The position numbers and the translations under genes were made by a program. Below are positions 7,409 through 26,534 of a DNA stretch of 64,000 nucleotides, piece by piece. This stretch comes from Deltaproteobacteria bacterium (GTDB taxonomy: Bacteria > Desulfobacterota > Dissulfuribacteria > Dissulfuribacterales > DYLC01), in contig JAQVIJ010000004.1 in assembly GCA_028695735.1 (NCBI GenBank), forward strand, positions 64,671 to 128,670, written 5' to 3'. Each line of letters opens with the position of its first letter. Position 1 is the first letter of the stretch. Under the pieces are notes generated by a model. That model saw only the letters and a list, made by a program, of their open reading frames with translations. It ran no database searches and was not told where the DNA came from.

Positions 7409-7421
7409 AATTGTAACGGTA

Positions 7422-10199: not shown

Positions 10200-11035
10200 T
10201 GTGTGACTCTCTCCAAAAGGGCCTCAAAGGCATCGCGAAGGTCGGGGCGGCTGTACAACAGCGGCTCACCCCTGGAGTATCCCTGGGCTATTCTGCGATC
10301 AAAGGGTATTTTCATAAGTATGGGAATGCCATTACTTCTGCACCACACCTCGGTCTCATCGCTTCCCATGTCGGCTCTATTGAGCACCACTCCAAAGGGC
10401 TGGCCCAGCCTTTGCAACACACTTGCAGCCAATTTCAGGTCGTGCAGGCCAAAGGGCGTGGGCTCGGTCACCAAAATCGTATAATGCGCATTGCGCACAG
10501 AGGCGATCACAGGGCAGGAGGTGCCAGGCGGTGCATCCACTATTACAAGCCCGCCCGCCTGTTCAAATTCACGGGCCTGGGCCTGCACTGCATGAATAAG
10601 GGGCGGCGACATGGCCTCGCCCACACGCAGACGGCCCTCTACGAAGAGCAGTTCGCCTGCCTTTCCCTCCTGCACCACGCCCACCTCCCGCCTGGCCTCG
10701 GAGATGGCCTTTTGTGGACAGACCAGCATACATCCGCCGCAGCCATGACACATCTCTGAAAAGGTCATGAGATGCCTGCCAAATATGGCTATGGCCTTGA
10801 ATTGGCATATCTCCTGACATTTTTTGCAAAAATCACAGCGAGATAAGTCCACCTCAGGCACAGGCATGGTAACGGGTATGCACCGTTCTATGCGTGGCTT
10901 TAGAAAGATGTGGCAATTGGGCTCCTCCACATCGCAATCTAGAAGGGCTACCCTGCCTGTGGCCGCAAGCCCAAGGCTCACAGCCACAGTGGTCTTGCCT
11001 GTTCCTCCCTTGCCGCTTGCAATCGCGATTCTCAC
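10196..11035 (-). CDS. MinD/ParA-type P-loop ATPase with an inserted ferredoxin-like domain (paralog)
   Basis: Walker A GKGGTGKTT, plus CDFCKKCQEIC and CHGCGGCMLVC. 4-nt overlap with the downstream paralog. Confidence 0.8.
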   Translation of the reverse strand: MRIAIASGKGGTGKTTVAVSLGLAATGRVALLDCDVEEPNCHIFLKPRIERCIPVTMPVPEVDLSRCDFCKKCQEICQFKAIAIFGRHLMTFSEMCHGCGGCMLVCPQKAISEARREVGVVQEGKAGELLFVEGRLRVGEAMSPPLIHAVQAQAREFEQAGGLVIVDAPPGTSCPVIASVRNAHYTILVTEPTPFGLHDLKLAASVLQRLGQPFGVVLNRADMGSDETEVWCRSNGIPILMKIPFDRRIAQGYSRGEPLLYSRPDLRDAFEALLERVTQ

Positions 11036-11700
11036 AGCCCCCAGCCCCTCACAGGCCTTCTTGCCAAGGGACGCCCTGAAACATTTGGGCAGGAGAGGTC
11101 ACGCCGCCTTCTTCTGATGCGCAGACTCAGATTTCTTCCCATGCATCGAAGCGCCTGGCCCATACCCGCAAGCATTGCCGCACAGCGGCCTTGTCCGCGA
11201 CCGCCGCCACCGCCCATGCCACGGCCACCACTCCGGCATCCACCGCCCATACTCCGTCCACCGCCGCCTTGTCCGCGACCGCGGCCTGCGCCTCCAAAAC
11301 TATTGCCGAAACTATTAGTTGAAGGGCCCGTGCCTTCACTGCTATGACCATTTGCATTTGGACTCAAAGACGATGTCGAATTCCCTTGATTAAAGCGCAT
11401 AACAGCCTCCTTAACTGTTCCTGTCTGTTCGGAAAACACCTTGACCCCTGCTGCGTCCAGGATGGCAAAGGCCTTTGGCCCCACCTGACCCGTAAGCAGG
11501 GCCTGTACTCCGGCATCCACCACCATGCTGGCGGCGTTAATGCCTGCCCCATGAGCGGCATTCTGGGATGCACGATTGTCTATGACCTTCACCACCTCCA
11601 GGGTATCGGTCTCTATGATGAGCAGATAATCTGCCCTGCCAAACCTTGGATCCACGAGGGAATCCATGCCCTGACCTGTTGCGCTGACGGCGATTCGCAT
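11032..11700 (-). CDS. NifB/NifX-family (dinitrogenase FeMo-cofactor-binding fold) protein with a Gly/Arg-rich C-terminal extension
   Basis: The N-terminal ~115 aa (MRIAVSA..DPRFGRADYLLIIETD..HGAGINAA..LLTGQVGPKAF..L..AGVKVF) match the NifX/NifB-like domain. The tail is GGAGRGRGQGGGGRSMGGGCRSGGRGMGGGGGRGQGR. Confidence 0.7.
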   Translation of the reverse strand: MRIAVSATGQGMDSLVDPRFGRADYLLIIETDTLEVVKVIDNRASQNAAHGAGINAASMVVDAGVQALLTGQVGPKAFAILDAAGVKVFSEQTGTVKEAVMRFNQGNSTSSLSPNANGHSSEGTGPSTNSFGNSFGGAGRGRGQGGGGRSMGGGCRSGGRGMGGGGGRGQGRCAAMLAGMGQALRCMGRNLSLRIRRRRRDLSCPNVSGRPLARRPVRGWGL

Positions 11701-11796
11701 TTGCTGTCTCCTTGTTTGGGATTATGAGCAAATGTTAAGTTATTTTTGAGAAATGTCAATGGGAATTCCATGGTTATTTTTCAAACCCAAAATTTG

Positions 11797-11913
11797 ACTG
11801 ACCTTCTCCTGTTCTTCTTGGGCCTTTCGTGCTATCATATTCAGCATGTCGATGAGCCATGCCGCAGACGGACACCTCCATCCGTATATTCAGGGGTCAT
11901 TAGAAGAGATATT
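11797..11913 (+). repeat. Left copy of a perfect 117-bp direct repeat (island boundary)
   Basis: Identical at 117 of 117 positions to 26418-26534, checked base by base. Confidence 0.95.
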
Positions 11914-11932
11914 GTTATCTAATGCGCTTTAA
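11846..11932 (+). pseudogene. Orphan 5' fragment of the Dna2-like nuclease-helicase gene
   Basis: MSMSHAADGHLHPYIQGSLEEI is identical to the start of the gene at 26467. It diverges in codon 23 and stops after 28 codons. Confidence 0.75.
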
Positions 11933-11935
11933 TTA

Positions 11936-11964
11936 TTGCAATAGCTATCATATATGGCTATATA
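11936..11964 (+). promoter_or_regulatory. Candidate sigma70-type promoter for the island operon
   Basis: TTGCAA (11936-11941), 17-nt spacer, TATAAA (11959-11964), in the AT-rich 190-bp stretch just inside the left junction. About 135 nt upstream of ATG 12101. Confidence 0.35.
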
Positions 11965-12100
11965 AAGATAATTGAGCAGTTGTGAAAACAGTAAATTCAA
12001 ACAGGCTCAATCTCCAAATTCACGACTATTATGAGTATTACGAACAGCGTAAAATCGGAATACTGTTCTTTGTTGATGTAGGGAACAGCGGGGGGCACTC

Positions 12101-15100
12101 ATGATTAAGACGGTCAAGCAGGCCTGCCGGTTCAATCCAATCATTCGGGACTACCGGATGAGCCAGGGAATCGAGAACCTGGTAGAACTCATCAATGACG
12201 CGGGCGACGGTCGCGAGTTCTTCTCGCGCAACTACGTCACGCACGGCATGGAGCAGCTCTTCCGTGAGGGGCTGCTGCGCCTGTCGGGTAAGTCAGATCA
12301 GGCGGTCTTCGAGCTCACCCAGGCTATGGGCGGTGGTAAGACCCATATGATGATCGCACTTGGCCTGCTCGCGCGTCATCCGCATCTGCGTAAGGACGTC
12401 TTGCCCGCCGACTTGACGTCTCGCATTGAATTTGACCAGGCACGTATCGCCGCCTTCAACGGTCGCAACAACCCAGACAACTACATCTGGGGGGAGATCG
12501 CAAGTCAGCTTGGCGCCGAGGATGCCATCAAGCCCTACTGGGCGAACGGTCCCAAGGCCGTCGATCAGCGAAAGTGGAAGGAAATCATTGGTTATGAGCC
12601 GACATTGATTTTGCTGGATGAGCTGCCGCCCTATCTGGACAACGCCAGCACCCAAGTGTTCGGTCAGGGCACGCTGGCCAAGATGGTGGTCTACAGCCTC
12701 TCCAGCCTCATGAGCGCAGCGCTGGAGTTACCGCGTTGTGCCATCGTGATTGCCAACCTATCTGGCAGTTACACGCAGGCGACCAAGGCCTTGCGTGAGG
12801 CGATCTCCAATCTCCAACAAGAGACGCGGCGTCAGGCCATGACCATCACGCCGGTGCAACTGGCCGGCAATGAAATCTACGAAATCCTCAAGAAGCGCCT
12901 TATCGACGAACTGCCTGATGAGCGCGTCATCTCCGACATCGCGGAGGAGTACGCGCAGCAAATCAAGAAGGCGGAGGACGGCGGCTACATCGTGGCCAGC
13001 AGCATCGAGCAAATCGCAGAAGAGGTGCGCCAGACCTATCCATTTCACCCCTCGTTCAAGCACCTTGTCGCGCTATTCAAGGAGAATGAAGGCTTTCGCC
13101 AAACTCGCGGCCTGATGCAGTTTACCGCGCGTCTCCTCAAAAGCGTCGAGGACCGTGAAACGGATGATGTCTTCCTCATCGGCGCACAGCATCTCAATCT
13201 CAATGATGATCAGGTCAGGGATGAGATCGAGCGCATCGCACCCAAATTGATGCCAGCGGTGACGCATGACATCGCCGACAACGGCAATGCAATTGCCGAG
13301 CACATCGACGACGAGCTGGGGTCGGACGCCGCACGCCAGGTGATGACTCTACTGCTTGCCTCGAGTCTGTCTCGCGTGGTTGGCGGGCGGATCGGCCTTT
13401 CCGAGAGCGAGCTCATCGAGTTCCTGGCCGCCCCGCAGCGCAAGCCGGACGAATTTCTCCAGGCCCTGCAGCGGCTGCGCGAGGCCGCCTGGTACCTGCA
13501 CCGGGAGGAGCAGCGCTTCTTCATCAAAGAAACCGAGAATCTTTCGCGTCAGATCGAGCGCAACGCAAAGGAAATTCCTCAGCCCAAGATTGATCAGGCG
13601 CTGATCAATCGGCTCACCGGCATCCTTGAGCCAGTTCGCAAAATTGCCTACCAGGAGGTGCAGGTTCTGCCCAAGCTCGACGAATTGAAGCTCTCCGGCC
13701 CGCGGACGCTCATCGTCATCAAGCCAGATGGCAAGGTTCCGCCCAGTGAGCTCCAGAACTTCTTTGACTATCAGACGGAAAAGAACAACCTACTGGTGCT
13801 GACCGGCCAGGATAGCTTGTTGGCCGACGCTGTCGAGGAACGGTTGCGCGAGTTATATGCCATCGAGCAGATTCACAAACGGCTTCGCCCTGGAGACACC
13901 CTTTACGAAGAGGCTCGTGATCGTCTGGAAGATGCCGAACAGCGCTTCAACAAAGCGCTCTCGGCGGCCTACAACCGGCTCTACTTCCCGGTGAACGACC
14001 CGGGCGATGACCGTGACGTTTTGGCCGGCGTCACCATCGATCAAGGGCTGAAGCTCGGCCAGGGCGATCAGTCCGCCGAAGCTCAGATCGAGAGTCTGCT
14101 CGCAAGCCCAATAGCGAATTACAAGCTCGTGCGCGAGCTGACAAAAGACAACCTGAACGAATACTTTGCCATGGCCGAGGAGTATCTCTGGCCCAAAGGC
14201 GCAGATAACCGCCGCACGCCGTGGAAAGACGTCGTCACGCGCGCCAAGTGTTCACCCATCTGGCCCTGGATGCCGGGCGCGAGCGGTCTGGATACCCTCA
14301 AGACCGAGGCGTTGAAGCAAGGGCGCTGGCGTCTCGGTGAAGACGGCTACATTGAGAAAGGGCCATTCCCCAAGGACAAGGCCACCGTCAACGTGTCCGT
14401 CATCAACGTCAAGGCGGACACTGGTGAGACGGTGTTGAGCCTCACACCACGCCACGCAGGTGAAAGCCCGGTCGTCTATTGGTCGACCAAGCCTGACGTG
14501 TCCGACAAGGATCACAAGGTCGAGGACTTGGACAACTTCAGTTCGACTGAAGGCACCCTGTACTTCTGGGTCAAGGACACCACTGGGCAACATGAAAGCG
14601 CTCCCCCCGTGCGCTGGCTGGCCGACCTCAAGATCCGTCATCAGGTCGAACCTGCCGCCGACAAGCGCCGTGTCACCCTGGCCGTCACGCCGCGCGCCGA
14701 TCTCTTCTATACCTTGGACGGTTCCAACCCCAAGGACGGCACCCGCTACGACGGGCCGTTCGAGATTGGGTCGGCGAGCTGCCGTCTGCTGGTGTTCGCT
14801 CGTGCAGGCGAAGCTAACAAGACGGCGGACTTTCAGATTCCTGCCAGTGGTGACAAAATGGTTCAGATCGTAGATAGCAAGCCGGCGCGTCTGCAAAGCA
14901 AACGCGTCGCTCTCGACACGACTGACCGCGTCTTCGGCGTCATCAACCGTTTCCGCGATCAGCCGGGCACGCGTTTCAAGGGAGTGCGGGTCGAAATCGG
15001 CGAAGGCGAGAACACCGTGACTGTCCGCTTCCAAGAGCGTGAGGTTACAGCCGCCATCATCGAAGGCGTGGTCAACAGCCTGCGCGAGGTGCTCAAAGAG

Positions 15101-15223
15101 CCTAACGCACCGCTCACCATAGTCATCAACGGTGTTCACTTCGACACTGGCTTCGCGTTGAAGGAGTTTGCCACGCTTGCCGGAATCGAATTGAAGCCGG
15201 GCGAAGTGATTCAGGAGGATTGA
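12101..15223 (+). CDS. Large DUF499-type P-loop ATPase
   Basis: 1040 aa. Walker A AMGGGKTHMM and Walker B TLILLDELPPY. The N-terminal pattern is recognised as the DUF499 family. The C-terminal region has an Ig-like FYTLDGSNPKDGTRYDGPFEI motif. Confidence 0.75.
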   Translation: MIKTVKQACRFNPIIRDYRMSQGIENLVELINDAGDGREFFSRNYVTHGMEQLFREGLLRLSGKSDQAVFELTQAMGGGKTHMMIALGLLARHPHLRKDVLPADLTSRIEFDQARIAAFNGRNNPDNYIWGEIASQLGAEDAIKPYWANGPKAVDQRKWKEIIGYEPTLILLDELPPYLDNASTQVFGQGTLAKMVVYSLSSLMSAALELPRCAIVIANLSGSYTQATKALREAISNLQQETRRQAMTITPVQLAGNEIYEILKKRLIDELPDERVISDIAEEYAQQIKKAEDGGYIVASSIEQIAEEVRQTYPFHPSFKHLVALFKENEGFRQTRGLMQFTARLLKSVEDRETDDVFLIGAQHLNLNDDQVRDEIERIAPKLMPAVTHDIADNGNAIAEHIDDELGSDAARQVMTLLLASSLSRVVGGRIGLSESELIEFLAAPQRKPDEFLQALQRLREAAWYLHREEQRFFIKETENLSRQIERNAKEIPQPKIDQALINRLTGILEPVRKIAYQEVQVLPKLDELKLSGPRTLIVIKPDGKVPPSELQNFFDYQTEKNNLLVLTGQDSLLADAVEERLRELYAIEQIHKRLRPGDTLYEEARDRLEDAEQRFNKALSAAYNRLYFPVNDPGDDRDVLAGVTIDQGLKLGQGDQSAEAQIESLLASPIANYKLVRELTKDNLNEYFAMAEEYLWPKGADNRRTPWKDVVTRAKCSPIWPWMPGASGLDTLKTEALKQGRWRLGEDGYIEKGPFPKDKATVNVSVINVKADTGETVLSLTPRHAGESPVVYWSTKPDVSDKDHKVEDLDNFSSTEGTLYFWVKDTTGQHESAPPVRWLADLKIRHQVEPAADKRRVTLAVTPRADLFYTLDGSNPKDGTRYDGPFEIGSASCRLLVFARAGEANKTADFQIPASGDKMVQIVDSKPARLQSKRVALDTTDRVFGVINRFRDQPGTRFKGVRVEIGEGENTVTVRFQEREVTAAIIEGVVNSLREVLKEPNAPLTIVINGVHFDTGFALKEFATLAGIELKPGEVIQED

Positions 15224-15225
15224 GG

Positions 15226-15858
15226 ATGGCACAAGCCAAGGCCGCAGCCAATACCGAATCACCGAAGCCGCGCTCACAAATGCCGCATACGCTGGGCTTC
15301 GGGGTGCCGGCCACCTCTGACCCGCATCACTTCAAGGTGATTATCCCCAGGAGCAGCACGGGCAAGGTCTTGATCAGCGAGTACCTCGGTCTGCAATCGG
15401 CCTCGGCGGAGAGTGCGGTGATCGACCGCGTCTTGCTCGACAGGCCGCGCTGGACAGCGATCCGTGCCGAAGTGCAGCGAGCCTTCAACGCCCGCCTCAC
15501 CGCACATGGCCTGAAGCCCAGCGCGTGGAAAGTCGGCGAAAACCTGGTGGACCGCCTGCTCGGCAAGGAGCTCTGTGTCCTTGCCTGGGCTGTGGAGCAG
15601 ATGGATGCTGACAGAATTCCTGTTGCCGTGCGGAATTGGCTCGCACTGCGGCCAGAAGAACGCTGGTGGCTGTTTGGCATGACCGCCATGACAACCGGCG
15701 GGGTGATGGATGGAGGCAAGGGGTGGCGTGCCGCCCTTCAGCACGCCTTGGGCGATGTGGTGCAGAGTGAGTTGCTCGCTCTTCGTGCCCGACGTGGCAA
15801 GCTGGAACAGAAAGTTGCCCAGGTCTCATTAGGGCTGTTCGGAGACGAAGTGCCATGA
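15226..15858 (+). CDS. DUF3780-like small protein (usual partner of DUF499/DUF1156)
   Basis: ATG 15226 is preceded by caggagg. The track start at 15220 is a TTG. The family call rests on memory of the conserved DUF499-DUF3780-DUF1156 gene order. Confidence 0.5.
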   Translation: MAQAKAAANTESPKPRSQMPHTLGFGVPATSDPHHFKVIIPRSSTGKVLISEYLGLQSASAESAVIDRVLLDRPRWTAIRAEVQRAFNARLTAHGLKPSAWKVGENLVDRLLGKELCVLAWAVEQMDADRIPVAVRNWLALRPEERWWLFGMTAMTTGGVMDGGKGWRAALQHALGDVVQSELLALRARRGKLEQKVAQVSLGLFGDEVP

Positions 15859-16520
15859 ACACCGTACCCCAGAAGCCCAAAATTTATCACATCGTCCATG
15901 TGGATCGTCTGCCCTCCATCGTGGCCGCCGGCTTCCTCTGGTGCGACGCGGAGGTCATTCGTCGTGCGCTCGCGGGTACGACCATCGGCATGAGCAGAAT
16001 CAAGCAGCGGCGCTTGACCCTGCCACTGAACAGCCACCCCGATCTGCACGTAGGCGACTGCGTGCCGTTTTACTTCTGCCCGCGCTCGGTGATGCTGTAC
16101 CTGATCTACCAGGGCAATCATCAGGATCTGGAGTATCGCGGCGGGCAGGCCCCAATCCTGCATCTCGAAGCGGATCTGCATGCCACCGTTGCTTGGGCAC
16201 AAGCCCAACAGAGGCGGTGGGCCTTCACCCTCTCGAACGCCGGTTCGTACTTCTTCGAGGACCGTTGCGATTTGGCATGCCTCGACGAAATCGACTGGGC
16301 GGCCGTTCAAGCCCTGGACTGGCAGCAGTGCAAGGAAGGCAAGCAAGCCGAGTTTCTGCTGGAGCACAGCTTTCCCTGGCACCTGATCGAGCGCATCGGC
16401 GTGCTCAATTACACGATCTATCAACAAGTTGTGAAGGCCCTTCCGCTAAACGGACACCGACCTACGGTCAAAATCTGCGAGGATTGGTATTACCGAGAAA
16501 TGAGAGGAGCACAGCTATGA
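15855..16520 (+). CDS. darT: DarT ssDNA thymidine ADP-ribosyltransferase (DUF4433 toxin)
   Basis: 221 aa. KIYHIVHVDRLPSI start, CVPFYFCPRSVMLY, and KQAEFLLEHSFPW carrying the catalytic-Glu context. ATGA overlaps on both sides. Confidence 0.8.
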   Translation: MNTVPQKPKIYHIVHVDRLPSIVAAGFLWCDAEVIRRALAGTTIGMSRIKQRRLTLPLNSHPDLHVGDCVPFYFCPRSVMLYLIYQGNHQDLEYRGGQAPILHLEADLHATVAWAQAQQRRWAFTLSNAGSYFFEDRCDLACLDEIDWAAVQALDWQQCKEGKQAEFLLEHSFPWHLIERIGVLNYTIYQQVVKALPLNGHRPTVKICEDWYYREMRGAQL

Positions 16521-17566
16521 TCGAGTTCACCTCGGGTGACATTCTGAAGTGTGAGGCCGACGCGCTGGTCAACACCGTCAACTGCGTCGGCATGATGGGT
16601 CGCGGGATTGCCTTGCAGTTCAAGAACGCCTTCCCTGAGAACTTCAAGGCCTATGAGGCTGCGTGTAAGCGCCAGGCCGTGCAGCCTGGGCTTATGTTTG
16701 TCTTTGAAACAGGGCAGCTCACGCCACCGCGCTTCATCATCAACTTTCCGACTAAGCGCCATTGGCGCGGCAAGAGCCGCATCAAGGACATCGAAGCAGG
16801 TTTGGTCGATCTGGTTCGGGTCATTCGCGAAAAGGGTATCCGCTCCATCGCCATCCCACCGCTGGGCTGTGGCTTGGGGGGCTTGGACTGGCGCGAGGTG
16901 CGCCCCCGCATCGAGCAAGCGTTGGAGCAACTGGCAGACGTGCACGTGCTCGTGTTCGAGCCCAACGGTGCACCCACCACGGACAAGATGACCCATGTGC
17001 GTGAAGTGCCGGCCATGACCGCGGGTCGCGCGGCCCTCGTTGAGTTGATTCACCGTTACCTTAGTGGCCTGCTCGACCCCTTCGTGACCTTGCTCGAGGT
17101 GCACAAGCTGATGTACTTCATGCAGGAGGCAGGGGAGCCGCTGCGCCTGAAGTACGTCAAGGCACCTTATGGCCCCTACGCCGAGAACCTGCGCCATGTG
17201 CTGCGCACGGTCGAGGGACACATGATCGCGGGTTACGCCGACGGCGGCGATGCGCCAGACAAGCCTCTGACGCTGGTTCCCGGCGCCATCCAGGAGGCAT
17301 CCGCCTTCCTCGACCAACATGCCGACAGCCGTGAACGCTTCGAGCGTGTCACCCGCCTCATCGAGGGCTTTGAGTCGCCCTATGGCCTCGAGCTGCTCTC
17401 GACCGTGCATTGGGTCATGACGCGCGAGGGCGGCAGCCAGCTCGATGACGTGGCCGAGCGCATCTACGCCTGGCACCCGCGCAAGCGTCAGTTCACGCTT
17501 CGACAGATTGCTATCGCTGCCGACAGACTGACCGCCCAAGGTTGGGTGCAGGCAGCGACCGCTTGA
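16517..17566 (+). CDS. darG: DarG macrodomain antitoxin (DNA ADP-ribosyl glycohydrolase)
   Basis: Start at ATG 16517 (MIEFTSGDILKCEADALVNTVNCVGMMGRGIALQFK, macrodomain). 349 aa with a C-terminal partner-binding domain. The upstream 192 codons of the track ORF overlap darT out of frame. Confidence 0.8.
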   Translation: MIEFTSGDILKCEADALVNTVNCVGMMGRGIALQFKNAFPENFKAYEAACKRQAVQPGLMFVFETGQLTPPRFIINFPTKRHWRGKSRIKDIEAGLVDLVRVIREKGIRSIAIPPLGCGLGGLDWREVRPRIEQALEQLADVHVLVFEPNGAPTTDKMTHVREVPAMTAGRAALVELIHRYLSGLLDPFVTLLEVHKLMYFMQEAGEPLRLKYVKAPYGPYAENLRHVLRTVEGHMIAGYADGGDAPDKPLTLVPGAIQEASAFLDQHADSRERFERVTRLIEGFESPYGLELLSTVHWVMTREGGSQLDDVAERIYAWHPRKRQFTLRQIAIAADRLTAQGWVQAATA

Positions 17567-17579
17567 AAAACCCCTCGCC

Positions 17580-20519
17580 ATGCACGCACAAACAAGACCC
17601 ACCCTCTCCCCACTGGCGCTGAAAGACGCCCCCGCTCTGATCGAGACGGTCTTTCCGGCGCAGAAGGTGTCCTTCGAGGCGCAGACCGAACGCAAGGCAG
17701 GCCGAGGACAGACCCTTACAGGGCTCGGCTCTTTTTGGAAAGGCCGCAAGCCCCTGATCCTGGTGCGGGCCATCGTGCTGGGCAGCCTGCTCCCCCCCAC
17801 CGATGACCCCGAGGCCGATCTCGCGGTGTTCGAAGCGCTGCTGGCCTTCGACGACGAGGGGCTGGCGCGGCGCGCGCTTGCCGCCAATGCGTTCTCGGCC
17901 GCCAAGCTGCAAGAGATGATCCCGATTGCCGACCCCGAGCGCTACTTCAGCGGTCGCGGCTGGCGGCGTGACGTGAGCAACGACGACAAGCTCGAATTGT
18001 ACCGCCGCGCGCTGGCGACACTGCCCAGCTACGAAGCCAAGGCCGCCCTGTGCAAGCGTCCCGAAGAAGTGGATCAGGACTGGCTCTATGCGCCTGTATG
18101 GCCCAAGGTCAACCGCCACTATGCGCACTTAGGTATCGATGCGCATTCGTTCCCGCAGCTCATCGAGCAACTGGGCATCCTGCGCTATGGGCATCGTCCG
18201 CGCGTCGGCGACACTTTCTGCGGCGGCGGCTCCATCCCCTTCGAGGCGGCGCGTATCGGTTGCGACGTCTATGCCTCCGACCTGAACCCCATCGCCTGCA
18301 TGCTCACCTGGGGGGCGCTGAACATCATCGGCGCCAATCCGCAACGTCGTGCTGAACTTGAACAGGCACAACGTGAAGTCGCTCAGGCGGTGGATGCGGA
18401 AATCACCCGGCTGGGTATCGAGCACGACGAATACGGCAACCGCGCCAAGGCGTATCTCTATTGCCTGGAGACGCGCTGCCCTGAAACGGGTTGGATGGTG
18501 CCGCTCGCCCCCAGTTGGGTCATTTCCAAGACGCGCAATGTGATCGCCCGCTTGGTTCCCGATTCGTCCGCCAAGCGCTTTGTGATCGAGATCGTAAGCG
18601 GCGTGAGTGACGCAGAACTCAAGGCCGCCGAGCGCGGCACGGTGCAGGACGGCGATATGGTCTATGAACTCGACGGCAAGAGCTATCGCACCCCCATCAA
18701 GACCCTGCGCGGGGACTATCGGCTGCCTGATGGCAGCACGGGCAATCGGCTGCGCCGCTGGGAAAAACACGATTTCAAGCCGCGCCCGGAAGACATCTTC
18801 CAGGAGCGGCTCTATTGCATCCAGTGGATCAAGAAGGAAACGATCGACGCCGCCCGCCAAGAGACCTGGTTTGCCGAGCCCACCGAGGCGGACCTGGAAC
18901 GTGAGCGCAAGGTGGAGACCATCGTCGCCAAGAACCTTACCCGCTGGCAGGAAGAAGGCTTGGTGCCCGACATGGCCATCGAGCCGGGGTACAACACCGA
19001 CCAGCCGATCCGCGAGCGCGGCTGGACGCATTGGCATCACTTGTTCAATGCGCGGCAACTGCACATGCTGCAAGCTATCTTGCACCATGGGCGGACTACT
19101 TTCACTTGGCTGGCTATCCTAGGCATCTTGAATTTGCAGTCCAAGCTGTGTGCATGGCATAACGATGGACGGAAGGGAGGGCTTCAGAATGCGTTTTATA
19201 ATCAGGCGCTGAATACGCTCTTTAACTGGGGTTCGCGTGGGCTGATTGATCTCATTGATTACATCCAACTTGACACCAAGAGCTCGCCCGTACGTCAATC
19301 ACTCAGACTGAGCGCAGTCCCAGCTGATCAACTCACCGATCATGCGGAGATTTGGATCACCGACCCCCCCTACGCCGACGCGGTGAACTACCACGAGATC
19401 ACTGAGTTCTTCATTGCCTGGCTGCGCAAGAACCCGCCCAAGCCGTTCGACGAATGGGTGTGGGATTCGCGCCGGGCGCTGGCGATCAAAGGCGCGGGTG
19501 AAGACTTCCGCCGTGGCATGGTGGCCGCCTACCGGGCCATGCGTGAGCACATGCCCGACAACGGCCTACAGTGCGTGATGTTCACCCACCAGGACACCGG
19601 CGTCTGGGGCGACCTGATCGGCATCTTCTGGGCGGCAGGCCTGCAAGTGGTGGCCGCCTGGTATATCGCCACCGAGACCACCTCCGAACTCAAGAAAGGC
19701 GGCTACGTCCAGGGCACCGTGATCCTGATGCTCAAGAAGCGCCCGCCCGGCGAGCGGCCTGGCTTCAAGCAGCGCCTGTTGCCCGCGGTGCGTCAAGAGG
19801 TGGCGCGGCAGATCGAGACCATGATGCACCTGAACGATACGGTGAAGGCGCATTACGGCGAGCCGGTGTGGAGCGACGCCGACCTGCAGATGGCGGGCTA
19901 TGCGGCGGCACTGAAGGTGCTCACGGCCTACACACACATCGGTGGCGAGGACGTGACGACTTTCGCGCTGCGCCCGCGTGCCCGCGGGGAGGTGACCGTC
20001 GTCGATGAGATCGTCCAGCAGGCGGCAGAGACGGCTTCGAGCCTCTTGGTGCCTGAAGGCCTGGCCCCAGACACCTGGGGGCGGCTGACCGGCATCGAAC
20101 GATTCATGTTGCGGATGCTGGACATGGAGACGACTGGCCCGACCAAGCTGGACAACTACCAGAACTTCGCCAAAGCCTTCCGTGTGGAGGACTACAGCCG
20201 CGTGATGGGCGATGTGCGCCCCAACCACGCACGCCTAAAGCGCGTCACCGAGTTCTCCTCCCGCGATTTGACCGAGTCCACGGAGATCGGTGCCACCCGA
20301 CTAGGGCGACTGATCATCGCCTTGCAGCAACTGCTGAAGGACACCGAGCCGCAGGTCATCGTCGAACAGCTCAAGCACGAGATGGCCGACTTCCTGGAGG
20401 TGCGGCCGCTTTTGGTGGACCTGCTGGCCTTTATCGAGCGCAAGTCGCCGGAACCCGAGGTGCGAAATGCCGCCGAGGTGGTGGGTGCGCGGCTTAAAAA
20501 TTTGAGATTTGGGGAGTAA
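17580..20519 (+). CDS. DUF1156-type DNA methyltransferase (N6A/N4C class, DPPY)
   Basis: 979 aa. N-terminal ETVFPAQKVSFEAQTERKAGRGQTLTGLGSFWKGRKPL (DUF1156 pattern), SAM motif DTFCGGGSIPFEAARIG, and catalytic WITDPPYADAVNYHE. Confidence 0.8.
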   Translation: MHAQTRPTLSPLALKDAPALIETVFPAQKVSFEAQTERKAGRGQTLTGLGSFWKGRKPLILVRAIVLGSLLPPTDDPEADLAVFEALLAFDDEGLARRALAANAFSAAKLQEMIPIADPERYFSGRGWRRDVSNDDKLELYRRALATLPSYEAKAALCKRPEEVDQDWLYAPVWPKVNRHYAHLGIDAHSFPQLIEQLGILRYGHRPRVGDTFCGGGSIPFEAARIGCDVYASDLNPIACMLTWGALNIIGANPQRRAELEQAQREVAQAVDAEITRLGIEHDEYGNRAKAYLYCLETRCPETGWMVPLAPSWVISKTRNVIARLVPDSSAKRFVIEIVSGVSDAELKAAERGTVQDGDMVYELDGKSYRTPIKTLRGDYRLPDGSTGNRLRRWEKHDFKPRPEDIFQERLYCIQWIKKETIDAARQETWFAEPTEADLERERKVETIVAKNLTRWQEEGLVPDMAIEPGYNTDQPIRERGWTHWHHLFNARQLHMLQAILHHGRTTFTWLAILGILNLQSKLCAWHNDGRKGGLQNAFYNQALNTLFNWGSRGLIDLIDYIQLDTKSSPVRQSLRLSAVPADQLTDHAEIWITDPPYADAVNYHEITEFFIAWLRKNPPKPFDEWVWDSRRALAIKGAGEDFRRGMVAAYRAMREHMPDNGLQCVMFTHQDTGVWGDLIGIFWAAGLQVVAAWYIATETTSELKKGGYVQGTVILMLKKRPPGERPGFKQRLLPAVRQEVARQIETMMHLNDTVKAHYGEPVWSDADLQMAGYAAALKVLTAYTHIGGEDVTTFALRPRARGEVTVVDEIVQQAAETASSLLVPEGLAPDTWGRLTGIERFMLRMLDMETTGPTKLDNYQNFAKAFRVEDYSRVMGDVRPNHARLKRVTEFSSRDLTESTEIGATRLGRLIIALQQLLKDTEPQVIVEQLKHEMADFLEVRPLLVDLLAFIERKSPEPEVRNAAEVVGARLKNLRFGE

Positions 20520-20523
20520 AGAG

Positions 20524-20937
20524 ATGAAATCCGATTTTTTGGATGCCCACGAACGCCATTGGCAAGACGCCGAAACGCTCTTTTGGAGGAAGCGCTGGGC
20601 TAATGCAGATCATCTTTATGGCATGGCGGCCGAGTGTGGATTGAAACGCTTGATGCTGGCCTTTGGGATGCCATATGACACCCAAAATGATCGCCCTGAA
20701 GAAAAAGAGGATCGGGTCCACGCCAACGGCATCTGGGCACGCTTCGAGAGCTACAGCGGCTATCACCAGGGTGCCGGCTACGCGTTGCCAGCGCCCAATC
20801 CTTTCGGCAATTGGGATGTGGCGCAGCGTTATGCCCACCAATCCAACTTTGACCGTGAGCGAGTGGATGCGCATCGCAAAGGTGCCAATTCGGTGCGCGG
20901 CCTGGTCCATAAGGCGCTGCTGGATGGGTTAATATGA
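20524..20937 (+). CDS. Hypothetical 137-aa helical protein (possible HEPN-like, speculative)
   Basis: ATG 20524 lies 7 nt after a ggggag SD. Helix-rich sequence with an R-x5-H (RERVDAH) near the C-terminus. No confident family match. Confidence 0.5.
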   Translation: MKSDFLDAHERHWQDAETLFWRKRWANADHLYGMAAECGLKRLMLAFGMPYDTQNDRPEEKEDRVHANGIWARFESYSGYHQGAGYALPAPNPFGNWDVAQRYAHQSNFDRERVDAHRKGANSVRGLVHKALLDGLI

Positions 20938-22253
20938 TGACTTTCGACGAGATTCTGCCAACAGTTCGAGAAATGCTTGACGCGCATCAAGCAGATGTGA
21001 AACGGATCGATTGGTTGCTCATCAACCGAGATCTTTATGGTCGGGTGCGGTTGATCGCCCCGGAAACTGCGCGGGAGGATGACGCCTCTCGCACCGCCCT
21101 GGAAACACTGGCGGTGCGCTTCGCCGAGCGGCTCGGTGCACATGCCTACCCGCCCGACTTGGCCATTCTCTATGAAGCCGATAAAAAGCTGGCTTTCCAG
21201 GGCGCCGCAGCCTTCCGGCTCGAAGGCCATGACAACGTGTGGTTGGTGGACCGCCTGGCGACCGAGAGCAACTGGGCAAGCATTGCGCCAGAAAGCACGG
21301 GTGCGCCGCGAGTCGTCTTCTTTTCCATCAAAGGAGGCGTGGGGCGATCGACCGCAGTGGCGGCTTGTGCATGGAAATTGGCGCAGTTGGGCAAACGGGT
21401 GCTGGTTCTCGATCTGGACCTGGAATCTCCTGGGCTATCGACTCATCTACTCCCATTCGAGCGCCAGCCTCGCTATGGGATCACCGATTGGCTGGTCGAG
21501 GACCTCGTGGATAACGGGCAGAGCGTATTCGAGGAGATGTACGCCACCAGTGAATTAGCTCGGGACGGAGAGATTTACGTCGTGCCTGCCCACGGTAGAG
21601 AAGCGGGCGAATATGTGGCTAAACTGGGCAGAGTATGGATGCCAAAAATCCATTCGGAAGGGAGGCGTGACTCATGGTCTCGCCGTTTGCAGCGCCTCTT
21701 GCAGGCGTTGGAAGAGCGTCTCCGTCCGGATGTGATCTTGATCGACTCGCGTGCCGGAATCGATGAGATAGCCTCTGCCTGCGTGACCGATCTATGTGCG
21801 AACCTGGTGTTGTTATTCGCACTGGATGGCAATCAGACCTGGAGCGGTTACCGGATTCTCTTCCAGCATTGGTTGCGCGCCGGCGTTGCGCAGGAGATAC
21901 GCAAAAGATTGCAGATCGTCGCTGCTTTGGTGCCTGAAATCGCCCCTTCTGATTATTTGGCTGATTTGCGTGAACATGCCTATGATCTCTTCCTCGATAC
22001 CTTGTACGACGAGATCGAACCTGCGGATACCGAGGGGTGGAGTTTCGACTTGGCGGATGAAACGGCGCCGCATCGACCGTTGGCGGTGCGCTGGCATCGT
22101 GGCTTTGCCGCCTTACGCACCCTGTATGGAAGGTTTGAGCAGATCGATGAGAATGAGATTCGGCTTGTATTTGGCGATTTGATCGATTTCCTCTTGTATT
22201 ATTTGGAGTGGGGTGATGGGTACATCCAAGTTATCGATGGAGGTAGGTTTTGA
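20934..22253 (+). CDS. ParA/MinD-like ATPase with a deviant KGGVGR Walker A and an unknown ~125-aa N-terminal domain
   Basis: VVFFSIKGGVGRSTAVAACAWKLAQLGKRVLVLDLDLESPGL, and Walker B-like VILIDSRAGIDE. ATGA overlap with the upstream gene. Confidence 0.7.
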   Translation: MMTFDEILPTVREMLDAHQADVKRIDWLLINRDLYGRVRLIAPETAREDDASRTALETLAVRFAERLGAHAYPPDLAILYEADKKLAFQGAAAFRLEGHDNVWLVDRLATESNWASIAPESTGAPRVVFFSIKGGVGRSTAVAACAWKLAQLGKRVLVLDLDLESPGLSTHLLPFERQPRYGITDWLVEDLVDNGQSVFEEMYATSELARDGEIYVVPAHGREAGEYVAKLGRVWMPKIHSEGRRDSWSRRLQRLLQALEERLRPDVILIDSRAGIDEIASACVTDLCANLVLLFALDGNQTWSGYRILFQHWLRAGVAQEIRKRLQIVAALVPEIAPSDYLADLREHAYDLFLDTLYDEIEPADTEGWSFDLADETAPHRPLAVRWHRGFAALRTLYGRFEQIDENEIRLVFGDLIDFLLYYLEWGDGYIQVIDGGRF

Positions 22254-23662
22254 GTAATGAAATTGCCATGATCAATACATACGTCCTGCGGGAAGCCATT
22301 CTCGCCGCACCATTGGAAACCAGCAATTTCGGAGAGGTGCCAAACGCCGGACAGCTCTATGTGCCGCCTTCGCACCTCAAGGCGCTACGCCTGGAAGCGC
22401 AGATCGTCGTGGGTGGTCGTGGCGTGGGCAAGTCATTCTGGACGGGCGTGTTGCAGTCGGATTCACTGCGTTCCTTGGTTAGCAAGGATGCGCAGGAACT
22501 TGCTGATGTAGTGGTTCGGGTCGGTTTTGCGGCTTCAGAAAACATGGCCATGTACCCAAACGCCGATGTCTTTGCAAACTTTCTCGATAAAGAAGGAGAC
22601 CCCTACGATTTGTGGCGCGCTGTGATACTGCGTTGGGTCGCAGAGATGTCTGGACAGAGGATTCCCTGCCAAAGCTGGATGGAGACCGTTGCCTGGATGA
22701 AGGATCAACCGGAAGACGCAGCGCTTCTGATGCAGCAGCCGCGAAACTGGCGTGGCTTGATCGTGTTCGATGCACTCGATCGCACCAGTAACGACTGGAA
22801 TCGGATGGATGTCATCGTACGTGGGCTGCTGCGCGCGATACTGTGGCTCAAGTCTTTCCGAGGACTCTACGGCAAGGTATTTCTGCGCGAAGACCAGGCG
22901 AAACGTACGGTATTCAACTTTCCCGATGCCTCGAAACTGATGGCGACTAAGGCCGAGTTGACCTGGGCCAGGCACGATCTGCACGGGTTGCTCTGGCAGC
23001 GCCTGATCAATGCCCCTAACGAGCATGGAGAAATCATGCGCAAGATTTGTGCCCACGAGCAGCGTGAAGGCATTTGGCGAGTCGCTGCTGAAATGACCCG
23101 TGATTCCGAAGCGCAGCGCAAGGCTTTCGAGCAGTTGGCTGGTCCTTGGATGGGGCGTGATAAGCGCCGTGGTGTTCCTTACACCTGGTCGGTCGGACAT
23201 CTGGCAGATGCCCGCGGCCAGACTTCCCCACGCTCGTTTCTTGCGGCTATTCGTCAGGCAGCGGAGGATTCAAGTGAGCGGTATCCTGATCACGACTATG
23301 CACTACATTACGAGAGCATCAAACGTGGTATTCAGAAGGCCTCAGAAATCAGGGTACAGGAAGTGGCGGAGGATTATCCTTGGATTAAGGACGTTCTCTC
23401 TGTTTTGAAGGGAATGAATGTGCCATGCGCTTACGAGGATATCGTGCAGCGTTGGCAGCAGCAATTTCCAGACGGACCCCAGGGTATATATTCAGAGCGG
23501 CTTCCGGCGCAACATGCCATTCAAGGCTGGGATGGGATTCGTGAGGACTTGATGCAGCTTGGACTGATCGAAGTTAAGAAAGATGGGCGCATCGATATGC
23601 CCGATCTTTACCGCGTGGGTTTCGGCTTGGGCCGCAAAGGCGGCGTGAAGCCCAGGAATTGA
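22250..23662 (+). CDS. P-loop NTPase of unknown function (resembles the family I recall as Sll1717-type)
   Basis: Walker A VVGGRGVGKSFWTG and Walker B LIVFDALDR. The TTG start at 22250 overlaps the upstream stop. An alternative ATG is at 22268. Confidence 0.6.
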   Translation: MSNEIAMINTYVLREAILAAPLETSNFGEVPNAGQLYVPPSHLKALRLEAQIVVGGRGVGKSFWTGVLQSDSLRSLVSKDAQELADVVVRVGFAASENMAMYPNADVFANFLDKEGDPYDLWRAVILRWVAEMSGQRIPCQSWMETVAWMKDQPEDAALLMQQPRNWRGLIVFDALDRTSNDWNRMDVIVRGLLRAILWLKSFRGLYGKVFLREDQAKRTVFNFPDASKLMATKAELTWARHDLHGLLWQRLINAPNEHGEIMRKICAHEQREGIWRVAAEMTRDSEAQRKAFEQLAGPWMGRDKRRGVPYTWSVGHLADARGQTSPRSFLAAIRQAAEDSSERYPDHDYALHYESIKRGIQKASEIRVQEVAEDYPWIKDVLSVLKGMNVPCAYEDIVQRWQQQFPDGPQGIYSERLPAQHAIQGWDGIREDLMQLGLIEVKKDGRIDMPDLYRVGFGLGRKGGVKPRN

Positions 23663-23668
23663 GGCGGG

Positions 23669-26422
23669 ATGGCCATTCGCCGCTTCTCCTCACGCACCCA
23701 CCGGCTCGATGTCAGCTTCCTGATGCAGCATCTGGTCGGTGCCAGGAGCTACAAGCGCATTGCCGGCTACTTCACTAGCTCGCTGTTCGAGGTGGCCGGC
23801 GAGGTGCTGGAAGAGATTCCGGAAGTCAAGATCGTCTGCAATGTGGACATTCACCCGGACGACCTGAAGGTGGCACAGTTGCGCGAAAGCAAGATGCTGG
23901 GCCGTTGGAACGAGCGCGGGATAGAGGCCGAGGCGCTCTTAAACCGCGAACGCTACCGGCGTCTGGATGCCTTTCTCCAGAAGCATGGGCAGGCGGTACG
24001 GGTCGCACCCGACGACATCTGTGGCTTCGTCCACGGCAAGGCCGGAGTGATCACGCTTGCCGATGGCCGCAGACTGGCTTTCATCGGGTCGATGAACGAG
24101 ACAAGAAGCGGCTGGCAGCGCCACTACGAAATCCTGTGGGAGGATGAGTCACCAGAGGGTGTTGCGTGGCTCGAGGAGGAGTTCGAATTCCTATGGAACG
24201 CCGCCAAGCCGCTGCCCCAGGCGGTCATTCGCGAGGTGCATCGCCGTGGCTATCGCCGCGAGGTGGTCTTCGATGAGATCGATGAGGACGAGAACCTTGC
24301 TCCCGCCGCCCTGATCGAGTCGCCGCTCTACCGCGAAGGGCAGCAACTTCAGCCTTGGCAGCAAGGGTTTTTGACCGAGTGTTTGCGCCACTACCGACTC
24401 TACGGCGTGGTGCGGCTGTTGCTCGCCGACGAGGTTGGCCTGGGCAAGACGCTGTCGCTCGCCACCGCTGCGCTGACGCTGTGCCTGCTGTCGGATAAGG
24501 AAAACGGTCCGCGCCGTCCGGTGGTGATCTTCGCTCCCGCCACTCTGACTGAGCAATGGCAGACCGAGATGCTGGACAAGCTGGGCATCCCGACCGCCCG
24601 GTGGGATACCGTGCGCAAGGTGTGGCTGGACGCGGAGGAGCGCGCCATTTCTCCGGCGGGCCGCGAGCAGGTGGCATGTTGTCCGCTGCGCATCGGCATC
24701 ATCTCCACTGGCCTCATGATGCGCGATTCATCGGAGAAGCAGCATCTCCTGGGCTTGCGATTTGGCGTGGTCATTCTGGACGAGGCGCACAAGGCGCGCA
24801 CGCGCCAAGGCTTTGGCAAGGAAGCCGGAACGCCGAACGAACTGCTGGCGTTCATGCGCGAGATCGCCGCCCGGGCCGATCACGTGCTGCTGGGAACGGC
24901 CACGCCGATTCAGACCAACCCTGTCGATCTGTGGGATCTGCTGGGCATCCTGCATCAGGGCTCGGAACGCTTCGTGCTGGGTCATGACCTTGCGCCATGG
25001 CACCGGCCAGAAGACGTGCTCGACATCCTGGCAGGCCGCGTTCAGGTGGAATCGCTGACCCATGCGTGGGAACTGTTGCGGTCGCCACTTCCGCGCATGG
25101 AATCAACCAGTGAGCCTCGCGCCCGGCGCTTGTTCTCGGCCATCCGGCAAGACCTGGGATTGCAAAGCGGGGAGTGGCAAACCAATCGTTCGCTGGCCGA
25201 TCTGACGGAAGAAACGCGGGAGATTCTGGAGGAGGAACTGGAGCGTCGCATAGCAGGTGCCACGCTATTCCAGCGCGAAAACCCTCTGGTACGCCATGTG
25301 GTACTGCGTAAGCGCCAGCAGCTCGAAGAAACGAAGGACAAGGATGGCAGACCCTTGCTGACCCCCGTAGGTGTGGATGTTCATCCCGACCGCGACAAGG
25401 TCATGGAGCAGCGCGGCTTCGATGCCTTGTTTGAAGGCAAGGCATTGCGCACCTCGGAGGACTTCCGCCAGGCTTATTGCGAGGCCCGCGCTTTTGGCAA
25501 GGCGCTGGCCAAACGCGGCAGGGGCAGCGGCTTCATGAAGAACCTGCTGGAACAGCGCATCTGTTCCAGCATTCAGGCAGGACTTGCAACAGCTCAAAGG
25601 CTTTTGCAAGGAGATGCCTTACATGAGGAAGGGGACGAGTTCGAGACAGACCTGAAAGTCGAAACGGACGAAGAACGCAAGATTCTTGAGCATCTGATCG
25701 ACCGTCTCCAGCGGCTAAGTAGCGATCCCAAGATGGAGGCCGTGATCCACTTTCTTGACAAGGAGAAGTGGCTGAATCTTGGCGTGATCATCTTCAGCCA
25801 GTACTACGACACCGCCAAATGGCTTGCAGATGAACTTGCCGCACGATATTCCGAGGAGGCCATAGGCCTCTATGCGGGTGCAGGACGCAGCCGCCTCTAC
25901 CAACGAAGTGACAGCGTTGCTGTGGAGCGTGAGACCCTAAAGCGCATGGTCGCCGAGCACCAGATTCGAATCATGGTGGCGACGGATGCTGCATGTGAGG
26001 GTCTCAATCTACAGACGCTCGGCACTTTGATCAATGTGGACCTACCGTGGAATCCGACGCGATTGGAACAGCGCCTTGGCAGAATCAAGCGCTTTGGCCA
26101 AAGGCGAGAAACCGTTGACATGCTCAACCTGGTCTTTGAACAGACGGTTGATGAGAAGATATACCAAAGGCTGTCCGAGCGTATGCGTAACCGCTATGAC
26201 TTATTTGGGTCCCTGCCTGATACTATCAAAGACGAGTGGATTGAGGACATCGAGTCCCTTGGAGAAAAACTGGATGAATATATCAACGCCCAGAAAAGGG
26301 CGACTGGCTTTGATCTACGCTACACGGCAACCATGAGTCCCCAGGATAGAGAGTGGCGGGACTGCACAGAGGTTTTGTCACGACGGGATGTGGTGCAGTT
26401 AATGACCACCCCCTGGAACTGA
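23669..26422 (+). CDS. PLD-family nuclease domain fused to an SNF2/DEAH helicase
   Basis: Single HKD motif (FVHGKAGVITL..GSMNET). Helicase motif I LLADEVGLGKT, motif II VILDEAHKAR, and C-terminal LATDAACEGLNLQ..NVDLPWNP..EQRLGRIKRFGQ. Confidence 0.8.
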   Translation: MAIRRFSSRTHRLDVSFLMQHLVGARSYKRIAGYFTSSLFEVAGEVLEEIPEVKIVCNVDIHPDDLKVAQLRESKMLGRWNERGIEAEALLNRERYRRLDAFLQKHGQAVRVAPDDICGFVHGKAGVITLADGRRLAFIGSMNETRSGWQRHYEILWEDESPEGVAWLEEEFEFLWNAAKPLPQAVIREVHRRGYRREVVFDEIDEDENLAPAALIESPLYREGQQLQPWQQGFLTECLRHYRLYGVVRLLLADEVGLGKTLSLATAALTLCLLSDKENGPRRPVVIFAPATLTEQWQTEMLDKLGIPTARWDTVRKVWLDAEERAISPAGREQVACCPLRIGIISTGLMMRDSSEKQHLLGLRFGVVILDEAHKARTRQGFGKEAGTPNELLAFMREIAARADHVLLGTATPIQTNPVDLWDLLGILHQGSERFVLGHDLAPWHRPEDVLDILAGRVQVESLTHAWELLRSPLPRMESTSEPRARRLFSAIRQDLGLQSGEWQTNRSLADLTEETREILEEELERRIAGATLFQRENPLVRHVVLRKRQQLEETKDKDGRPLLTPVGVDVHPDRDKVMEQRGFDALFEGKALRTSEDFRQAYCEARAFGKALAKRGRGSGFMKNLLEQRICSSIQAGLATAQRLLQGDALHEEGDEFETDLKVETDEERKILEHLIDRLQRLSSDPKMEAVIHFLDKEKWLNLGVIIFSQYYDTAKWLADELAARYSEEAIGLYAGAGRSRLYQRSDSVAVERETLKRMVAEHQIRIMVATDAACEGLNLQTLGTLINVDLPWNPTRLEQRLGRIKRFGQRRETVDMLNLVFEQTVDEKIYQRLSERMRNRYDLFGSLPDTIKDEWIEDIESLGEKLDEYINAQKRATGFDLRYTATMSPQDREWRDCTEVLSRRDVVQLMTTPWN

Positions 26423-26534
26423 CCTTCTCCTGTTCTTCTTGGGCCTTTCGTGCTATCATATTCAGCATGTCGATGAGCCATGCCGCAGACGGACACCTCC
26501 ATCCGTATATTCAGGGGTCATTAGAAGAGATATT
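26418..26534 (+). repeat. Right copy of the perfect 117-bp direct repeat
   Basis: Identical to 11797-11913. It starts 2 nt before the TGA of the helicase gene and contains the start codon of the next gene. Confidence 0.95.

Follow-up and report, generated by a model that had tools for sequence, protein, structure and literature searches.

What kind of defense locus occupies positions 12101-26422 of the DNA considered here, and do its parts form one machine or a stack of independent systems? The stretch, which we refer to as the window, is 64,000 nt long and belongs to a metagenome-assembled genome (MAG) of a Deltaproteobacteria bacterium (GCA_028695735.1, contig JAQVIJ010000004.1, positions 64,671-128,670, forward strand). 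The locus is an unbroken + strand array in which a four-gene restriction-modification (RM)-like core is interrupted by a darT-darG pair and by a three-gene module (below, the trio). The answer that we consider probable is that the array arrived as a single-unit insertion of a Type-2 BREX-related (BR) chassis carrying two self-sufficient modules in variable junctions, and that it provides layered defenses and not one obligate machine. The open reading frame (ORF) listing gives nine genes (4 core, 2 darTG, and 3 trio genes) with junction spacings, in gene order, of 2, -4, -4, 13, 4, -4, -4, and 6 nt. An earlier, sequence-only reading of this DNA had described a single-strand array with gaps of 13 nt or less and four overlapping junctions, and our coordinates and spacings agree, with the 4-nt overlaps located at 15855, 16517, 20934, and 22250. 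Its figure of ten genes was a miscount, as all of the gaps are too small to conceal a tenth. It had also described the core as interrupted twice, by darT-darG after the DUF3780 gene and by a three-gene module after the methylase gene, and both interruptions lie at the junctions that it named.

The first core gene (12101-15223) encodes a 1040-aa DUF499 AAA+ ATPase with Walker A GGGKT at residue 77, Walker B LLDELP at residue 171, and a C-terminal Fn3-like region at residues 855-908 (Pfam DUF499, Fn3_assoc, and CHB_HEX_C_1). Directly after it comes a 210-aa DUF3780 protein (15226-15858; Pfam PF12635, E=2e-74). Past the first interruption lies a 979-aa DUF1156 N6-adenine-type DNA methyltransferase (17580-20519; Pfam DUF1156, PF06634), with motif I FCGGGS at residue 213 and motif IV DPPY at 595, and past the second a 917-aa HKD(PLD)-SNF2 nuclease-helicase (23669-26422), the predicted restriction effector, in which Pfam places PLDc_2 at residues 87-176 ahead of SNF2-rel_dom (249-431) and Helicase_C (688-810), and which carries one HKD-type motif (HGK at 122 ... 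GSMN), DEVGLGKT at 254, and DEAH at 371. PADLOC matches for the core proteins are full length, with E=0 for DUF499, DUF1156_MTase, and PLD_Helicase and a strong match for DUF3780, and in gene order the four proteins score 1537.8, 278.9, 1400.3, and 1213.3 bits against NCBIfam NF042962, NF042961, NF042963, and NF042964 (cut-offs 1200, 200, 1000, and 1100, respectively). NCBIfam equivalogs named "anti-phage-associated" exist for the DUF499, DUF3780, and DUF1156 proteins, and NF042964 is titled "phospholipase D-like domain-containing anti-phage protein". The family calls that the sequence-only reading made by eye (DUF499, DUF3780, and DUF1156) thus hold in hidden Markov model (HMM) searches in which Pfam, PADLOC, and NCBIfam agree; the ATPase, methylase, single-HKD, and SNF2 motifs that it named are all present; and its suggestion of a recognized RM-like defense cassette is borne out by the same three resources.

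On the basis of these profile matches we identify the core as the Type-2 BR system of Rakesh and Krishnan (NAR 2026, PMC12839542), which is defined by a DUF499 ATPase, a stand-alone DUF3780 protein, a DUF1156 N6-methyltransferase, and a SNF2 helicase with an N-terminal HKD domain, and which is reported from 1,120 taxa. Each of these four genes is found here, in the canonical order and at full length against dedicated HMMs. The DUF3780 protein is the marker of the Type-2 subtype and its proposed modification reader (PMC12839542); the Fn3-like C-terminus of our DUF499 protein corresponds to a region described for 53% of Type-2 members (PMC12839542); and the HKD domain lies N-terminal to SNF2, replacing the TUDOR domain. 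A plain four-gene Type-2 BR operon is so annotated in RefSeq in E. coli UMNK88, and this version is annotated in 49 of 5,426 complete E. coli genomes; the present locus differs in having DarTG between the DUF3780 and methylase genes and the trio, which matches PDC-M28, between the methylase and helicase genes. The main text and text supplements of PMC12839542 describe nuclease-type auxiliary effectors and mention neither DarT/DarG nor the KGGVGR motif discussed below.

Several other named systems share features with this core. The sequence-only reading had guessed at a recently named methylation-associated system (MADS), which the locus resembles superficially as a multi-gene operon with a methyltransferase and ATPases. 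MADS is an 8-gene operon; here there are instead full-length DUF499, DUF3780, DUF1156_MTase, and PLD_Helicase matches, and the PADLOC matches listed for the nine proteins (for the helicase, the best 25 of 46) are to Type-2 core models and include no mad model, from a database, PADLOC-DB, that does contain mad models. The chance that the locus is a member of MADS is in our view close to nil. Canonical BREX was rejected, as PglZ, BrxA, and BrxB domains occur in none of the nine proteins and similarity to PglX and BrxH is weak; so was DISARM, there being no DUF1998 protein and the DrmD/DrmA matches of the helicase being partial (191.6 bits, against an NCBIfam cut-off of 610). Hma (helicase-methylase-ATPase, equivalent to the sister Type-1 BR) follows the same tripartite logic, and its HmaC, HmaB, and HmaA models give partial PADLOC matches here (E=7e-48, 3e-19, and 5e-37). 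Hma differs in having no DUF3780 gene and in a helicase effector that bears a C-terminal restriction endonuclease (REase) domain, not an N-terminal HKD domain; these two features rule it out, and the dedicated Type-2 models far outscore the Hma models in PADLOC.

The first embedded module consists of a 221-aa DarT (15855-16520), a single-stranded DNA (ssDNA) ADP-ribosyltransferase toxin by homology (Pfam DarT, E=5.6e-60; NCBIfam toxin_DarT NF048013, 246.9 bits, cut-off 150), and a 349-aa DarG antitoxin (16517-17566; Pfam Macro; NCBIfam antitoxin_DarG NF048014, 485.7 bits, cut-off 250), each with a strong PADLOC match and joined by one of the 4-nt overlaps. DarT aligns with the Thermus DarT structure 7OMV (E=2.6e-31), which we take to be that of the thymidine-specific Thermus enzyme, and at the aligned position the window has KQAEF and the 7OMV chain KQAAF, presumably with its Ala being the catalytic E160A mutation; the window protein has Glu at this presumed catalytic position. 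In the adjacent DarG, residues 1-152 (the macrodomain) match chain 5M3I_A (E=1.2e-57), presumably the M. tuberculosis DarG macrodomain, and residues 167-339, the C-terminal domain, match 7YK3_B, a DNA ADP-ribosyl glycohydrolase (DarG chain). We read the pair as an apparently intact DarTG of the macrodomain type (DarTG2), and from the 7OMV homology and the macrodomain antitoxin we infer thymidine-specific ADP-ribosylation of ssDNA that DarG would reverse. Such activity is known for the DarTG2 class, which ADP-ribosylates thymidine in ssDNA and defends against phage, and both DarTG families gave robust phage defense when moved into E. coli (summarized in PMC12255303). The arrangement has a close precedent in enteropathogenic E. 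coli, whose RRDM island has DarTG2 nested in a Type I RM operon and is experimentally active in defense (PMC12255303): there too a macrodomain DarT-DarG separates genes of a restriction system that relies on methylation, shares their strand, and has a promoter upstream. The host there is hsdMSR, and here it is a Type-2 BR operon; the present locus is also without the RptR regulator and the M48 peptidase of RRDM, and it contains a second embedded module.

That second module matches the PDC-M28 models of PADLOC, with three adjacent genes aligning near full length to the A, B, and C components. PDC-M28A (20524-20937; 137 aa, E=4.9e-57) has a helical AlphaFold model (pLDDT 84.5, pTM 0.82) whose best PDB structure matches are HEPN-annotated or HEPN-fold (TM 0.5-0.64), some of them proteins that we presume to be HEPN-fold, and its most conserved block, RWANADH, has an R-x5-H pattern. 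PDC-M28B (20934-22253; 439 aa, E=1.9e-183) is a ParA/MinD-like ATPase whose Walker A motif, KGGVGRS at residues 133-139, is a variant in which Arg takes the place of the canonical Lys of KGGxGK[ST]; this variant is the defining feature of the NCBIfam "KGGVGR-motif variant AAA ATPase" family, and the protein scores 204.4 bits against the corresponding model (NF047398 AAA_KGGVGR, cut-off 90). PDC-M28C (22250-23662; 470 aa, E=5.6e-204) is a P-loop ATPase with GGRGVGKS and LIVFDA motifs that falls just under the cut-off of the NCBIfam Sll1717 family (73.4 against 75 bits); its model is of moderate confidence (pLDDT 73.6) and shows weak Foldseek likeness to the AAA+ ATPases ORC/Cdc6, BrxC, and RdrA. 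The overlap at 22250 requires a TTG start, and the alternative ATG at 22268 would give a 14-nt gap and a protein of 464 aa, the length of most M28C homologues. What had been called an "ATPase trio" is accordingly better described as two P-loop NTPases together with a 137-aa non-ATPase of predicted HEPN fold. The name given to the M28A protein by NCBI and UniRef, "SAM-dependent methyltransferase", looks wrong in light of the structural model and of the lack of any methyltransferase signature.

As in the work that defined PDC systems, the trio is here embedded in a DNA-modification-based system; the hosts from which PDCs were derived are BREX, DISARM, and Type I RM, and the host here is BR Type-2. 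Relative to PADLOC's PDC-M28 entry, the model-based reading of the small subunit as HEPN-like and of one ATPase as ORC/BrxC-like is new in this analysis. Neither M28C nor M28A gave a usable match in sequence searches of the PDB, a PHROGs search gave a generic ParA match only, trio DNA had no match among PLSDB plasmids, and literature searches on PDC-M28, KGGVGR, and Sll1717 found no papers. The trio is conserved at 70-80% identity across proteobacterial classes, and its GC content at third codon positions (GC3) is 0.60-0.63, compared with 0.71-0.79 for the remaining six genes of the array.

How the nine genes came to lie at this position can be read from their flanks. A perfect 117-nt direct repeat (100% identity, spacing 14,621 nt; chance matches in shuffles = 0) brackets the array together with its leader, which we refer to as the cassette. 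The left copy (11797-11913) includes the first 22 codons of a Dna2-like gene and the region upstream of them, and the right copy (26418-26534) encloses the helicase stop codon, TGA at 26420-26422. The complete Dna2-like gene follows on the + strand at 26467-29391 and encodes a 974-aa Dna2/Cas4-like nuclease with an SF1 helicase (Pfam Dna2, AAA_11, and AAA_12, with NCBIfam matches). On the left, the duplicated 5' end of this gene runs into the cassette as a truncated 28-codon remnant ORF (11846-11932, + strand), which is identical to the sequence from 26467 onward over 22 codons and diverges at the insertion point. The Dna2-like gene, which lies outside the cassette and belongs to its context, is the target of the insertion and is kept intact by the duplication; the duplication likewise sets a second copy of the Dna2-like upstream region ahead of the cassette.

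A matching empty site, reached through a 99%-identical Dna2-like protein, is present in a JGI contig from another sample (L100), where the gene for this protein directly adjoins the FeMo-co gene. Positions 1-3899 of L100 align with 8024-11913 of the window at 98.9% identity, and positions 3783-6795 with 26418-29430 at 99.5%, and the 117-nt repeat is single-copy in L100, at 3783-3899. Since the empty site has one copy of the repeat, the window holds a 14,504-bp insertion plus a 117-bp duplication. Homology to other cassettes is confined to 12084-26417, the GC content of the cassette is 0.59 compared with 0.535 in the rest of the window, the core has its nearest relatives in Beta- and Gammaproteobacteria, and none of the nine genes encodes a recombinase. 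Taken together, these sequence features indicate that the cassette was horizontally acquired and inserted as one unit, which could have occurred by Campbell-type recombination of a circle or by a repair-associated duplication.

When metagenomes were scanned with 49 nt of the repeat, the only matches were an occupied site and a contig that is broken within the repeat. Logan unitigs break exactly at the repeat: two of them, L097 and L098, from independent SRA assemblies, are 14,564 bp long and consist of exactly the cassette, extended on either side by 30 nt of repeat. This is expected of k=31 graphs at this repeat, and a free 14,621-bp circle would explain it equally well; an empty chromosome together with such a circle would yield the same short-k-mer junctions as the integrated form. 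We accept the integrated form, with this caveat about a circle, because three independent contigs (the window, L099, and L091) thread flank, repeat, and cassette. The occupied site in L091 is itself altered, with 385 nt inside the Dna2-like gene missing, out of frame (junction 4018/4019, corresponding to window 26623-27007), and with unrelated sequence carrying AddA/AddB-like genes (L091 5161-12692) following the point equivalent to window position 28149; L091 comes from a rearranged strain or else is an assembly chimera.

Long flanking repeats were found only in the window and in one other locus, L074, among the loci with enough flank, and so are not a general feature of these cassettes. L074, in a Thermodesulfobacteriaceae MAG, is a Type-2 BR operon with darTG between the methylase and helicase genes, and its perfect 212-nt flanking repeat lies at 5378-5589 and 17846-18057; a 62-aa HTH_17 (Xis/AlpA-like) gene is located at 6103-6291, just upstream of its DUF499 gene.

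The DNA at 11914-12100, between the left repeat and the DUF499 gene, is the AT-rich leader of the inserted cassette and its presumed promoter region on the + strand; the sequence-only reading had picked it out as AT-rich, and its GC content is indeed 0.36 compared with 0.59 for the cassette. No + strand site in this leader passed our consensus promoter scan, and the leader has no homology to any other cassette, the sequence common to relatives beginning only at 12084. The consensus scan returned 8 promoter-like sites (4.9±1.8 in shuffles) and 15 terminator-like sites (12.3±3.9 in shuffles); as this is no richer than the shuffles, internal signals are neither shown nor excluded, and a single transcript is neither supported nor refuted by the scan. 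In an Rfam search over 9000-30000 the sole match was tRNA-Arg(CCT) at 29613-29685, with none in the leader.

Whether the two modules belong to the core or merely lodge in it was addressed by a survey of other loci, based on a search anchored on a diverse methylase alignment, from which 80 loci in GTDB genomes were classified by tblastn. We scored the interval from DUF3780 to methylase (slot 1) and that from methylase to helicase (slot 2) as carrying an insert (550 nt or more), carrying a small gap (250-549 nt), or empty. Among the 78 loci readable at slot 1, darTG is present in 15 and the trio in 0, with another insert in 24, a small gap in 1, and an empty slot in 38; at slot 2, readable in 70 loci, the corresponding numbers are 2, 4, 13, 1, and 50. 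Insertions thus recur at both junctions, a point that the sequence-only reading had proposed to check against other DUF1156 loci. The other occupants are Schlafen/AlbA_2-HATPase proteins, HEC-01A/B, an RmrA-like HTH-peptidase, a Uma2 nuclease (PDC-S03), and Gabija GajA/GajB, all of them known or candidate defense modules. No shared recombination sequence was found at the slot boundaries, where only TGAGG (a stop codon plus Shine-Dalgarno sequence) recurs; we considered it as an att-like site and rejected it as a generic coupling signal.

The two modules differ in how they are distributed. All 15 slot-1 darTG carriers have a DUF499 protein 83-91% identical to that of the window, and loci without darTG are at or below 83%; these identities split carriers from non-carriers, and darTG is thus stably retained in the core subclade to which the window belongs and which covers many genera. 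Two loci, L072 and L074, have a divergent darT-darG in slot 2 (49% and 57-59% identity to the window pair), an independent capture at the other junction. The trio, for its part, occurs as stand-alone islands among housekeeping genes in 4 of 7 genomic contexts sampled, in Allochromatium, Acidihalobacter, Tepidimonas, and Achromobacter, and embedded trios are often nearest to stand-alone ones (L020-L093, 81%; L006-L096, 80%). Between loci L016 and L053 the DUF499 and helicase proteins are 92-95% identical and the methylase 74%, and the trio proteins only 48-55%, so that as judged by sequence identity the phylogeny of the trio is incongruent with that of the core. The full nine-gene order also occurs in Stenotrophomonas maltophilia, in Halothiobacillus, and in a Rhodanobacteraceae MAG, and the trio identities suggest that it was assembled more than once.

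We therefore favor a stacking of autonomous modules, because the slots are variable, the trio is found alone, its phylogeny is incongruent with that of the core, and its GC3 is different. The principal competing explanation is that the BR core is functionally linked to DarTG, to the trio, or to both, so that the nine genes form one machine, with the modules either guarding against phage anti-restriction aimed at the ATPase, methylase, or helicase or sharing the DUF499/DUF3780 sensor. Such an integrated composite would fit the 4-nt overlaps of translational-coupling type at DUF3780/DarT, at DarT/DarG, and within the trio, the maintenance of darTG at one junction across a core subclade of many genera, the repeated capture of different trio lineages at an identical junction and the recurrence of the nine-gene order in three other hosts, and the published idea of "backup effectors" for BREX and BR loci. 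It is harder to reconcile with the finding that, where both slots can be read, the most frequent arrangement is a core with neither module (30 loci), with the unrelated modules that occupy the same slots, with a trio that stands alone in four genera, and with the occurrence of darTG in slot 2 as well and within Type I RM systems (PMC12255303); on balance we regard it as unlikely. Stacking also has precedents in the DarTG2 of an RM operon, in the auxiliary effectors of BREX and BR loci, and in the PDCs defined by embedding (PMC12255303; bioRxiv 10.1101/2024.01.29.577857).

A different possibility is that the embedded darTG serves mainly as an addiction module, stabilizing the cassette by post-segregational killing and contributing little directly to phage defense. 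DarTG is a bona fide toxin-antitoxin pair, the 117-nt repeats could delete the cassette by homologous recombination and so offer a selective niche for such a module, and darTG is co-inherited with the core throughout the subclade. Set against this are the robust defense given by both DarTG families in E. coli and the activity of the RM+DarTG2 island (PMC12255303), and defense and addiction roles are in any case not mutually exclusive. We consider addiction as the main role quite improbable, and distinctly less likely than an integrated composite.

A number of points nonetheless weigh against the layered stack that we prefer. Because the survey took the 80 top-scoring loci out of 591, its frequencies lean towards relatives of the window. 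Exactly the same junction is occupied by at least five distinct trio lineages, and darTG is fixed throughout one core subclade; repeated trio capture and darTG fixation could be equally expected from functional synergy, and not just from a neutral hot spot. Co-transcription of the nine genes is presumed from overlaps and short gaps. For the trio, the HEPN fold matches of M28A carry weak E-values (0.09-0.5), its R-x5-H motif is at an atypical position for HEPN, and the PDC systems are 145 untested candidates put forward by "guilt by embedding" (Payne et al., bioRxiv 10.1101/2024.01.29.577857). For the core, the experimental test of a BR system that is reported in the consulted part of PMC12839542 is of the Type-1 (Hma) helicase only.

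If the layered stack is nonetheless correct, its components would act as follows. By analogy with the published BR model, the core would carry out methylation-dependent restriction, in which the DUF1156 N6-methyltransferase would mark host DNA, the DUF499 AAA+ ATPase and DUF3780 (the proposed modification reader) would discriminate unmarked DNA, and the HKD-SNF2 nuclease-helicase would degrade it. Should neutralization by DarG be lost, through some putative trigger, DarT would ADP-ribosylate thymidines in ssDNA and block replication. The trio may be an NTPase-switched sensor controlling a HEPN effector, a proposal that covers the whole of its putative function. With the modules lying in one tightly packed operon, probably under one promoter region, they would be inherited and expressed together. 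A bolder generalization, which we offer as speculative and rather doubtful, is that the Type-2 BR operon is a docking platform whose two intergenic junctions exchange autonomous abortive-infection modules coupled as anti-restriction guards, and that the cassettes move without a self-encoded recombinase, by a mechanism that duplicates long stretches of the target perfectly (117 nt in the window and 212 nt in L074).

Other parts of the neighborhood show features of their own. A second strain-variable segment lies beside a tRNA gene: between the Dna2-like gene and tRNA-Arg(CCT) (29613-29685), L100 has about 5.7 kb (6796-12471) that are absent from the window (29430-29449), with genes for a hydrolase, an aminotransferase, a HAD phosphatase, TatA, and a histidine kinase/response regulator pair. 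To the left of the cassette, GC content falls to 33-38% at 7001-9000 (window average, 55%), a region that includes a histidine-kinase gene (7422-8849) and may be of foreign origin, and at 4530-7408 there are two adjacent paralogues that each combine an MshEN domain with a C-terminal DUF202 membrane domain, an unusual pairing.

The novelty of the locus is lower than the sequence-only reading had implied, and it is no new kind of defense system. The embedding of defense modules in RM-like operons, BREX, BR, and Hma is already established ("guilt by embedding"), the nine-gene order is already present in public genomes, and its parts are each recognized by PADLOC and NCBIfam; in our literature searches we found no paper on a DarTG-bearing Type-2 BR subclade or on its association with PDC-M28. 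What is new here is that the cassette is one 14,504-bp insertion between perfect repeats, with an empty site in a near-identical strain, and this matched empty-site allele fixes the exact boundaries of the insertion. Useful to the field are a Type-2 BR subclade in which DarTG is fixed and a candidate PDC-M28 trio that is autonomous, conserved, and repeatedly captured. The fold hypothesis for the trio (a HEPN-like subunit and two NTPases) is directly testable, as is the question of whether the embedded modules are merely co-inherited with their host system or guard it. The locus offers a natural example of layered immunity, in which a methylation-based restriction chassis, a DNA ADP-ribosylating toxin-antitoxin pair, and an uncharacterized three-gene module are combined in one operon.

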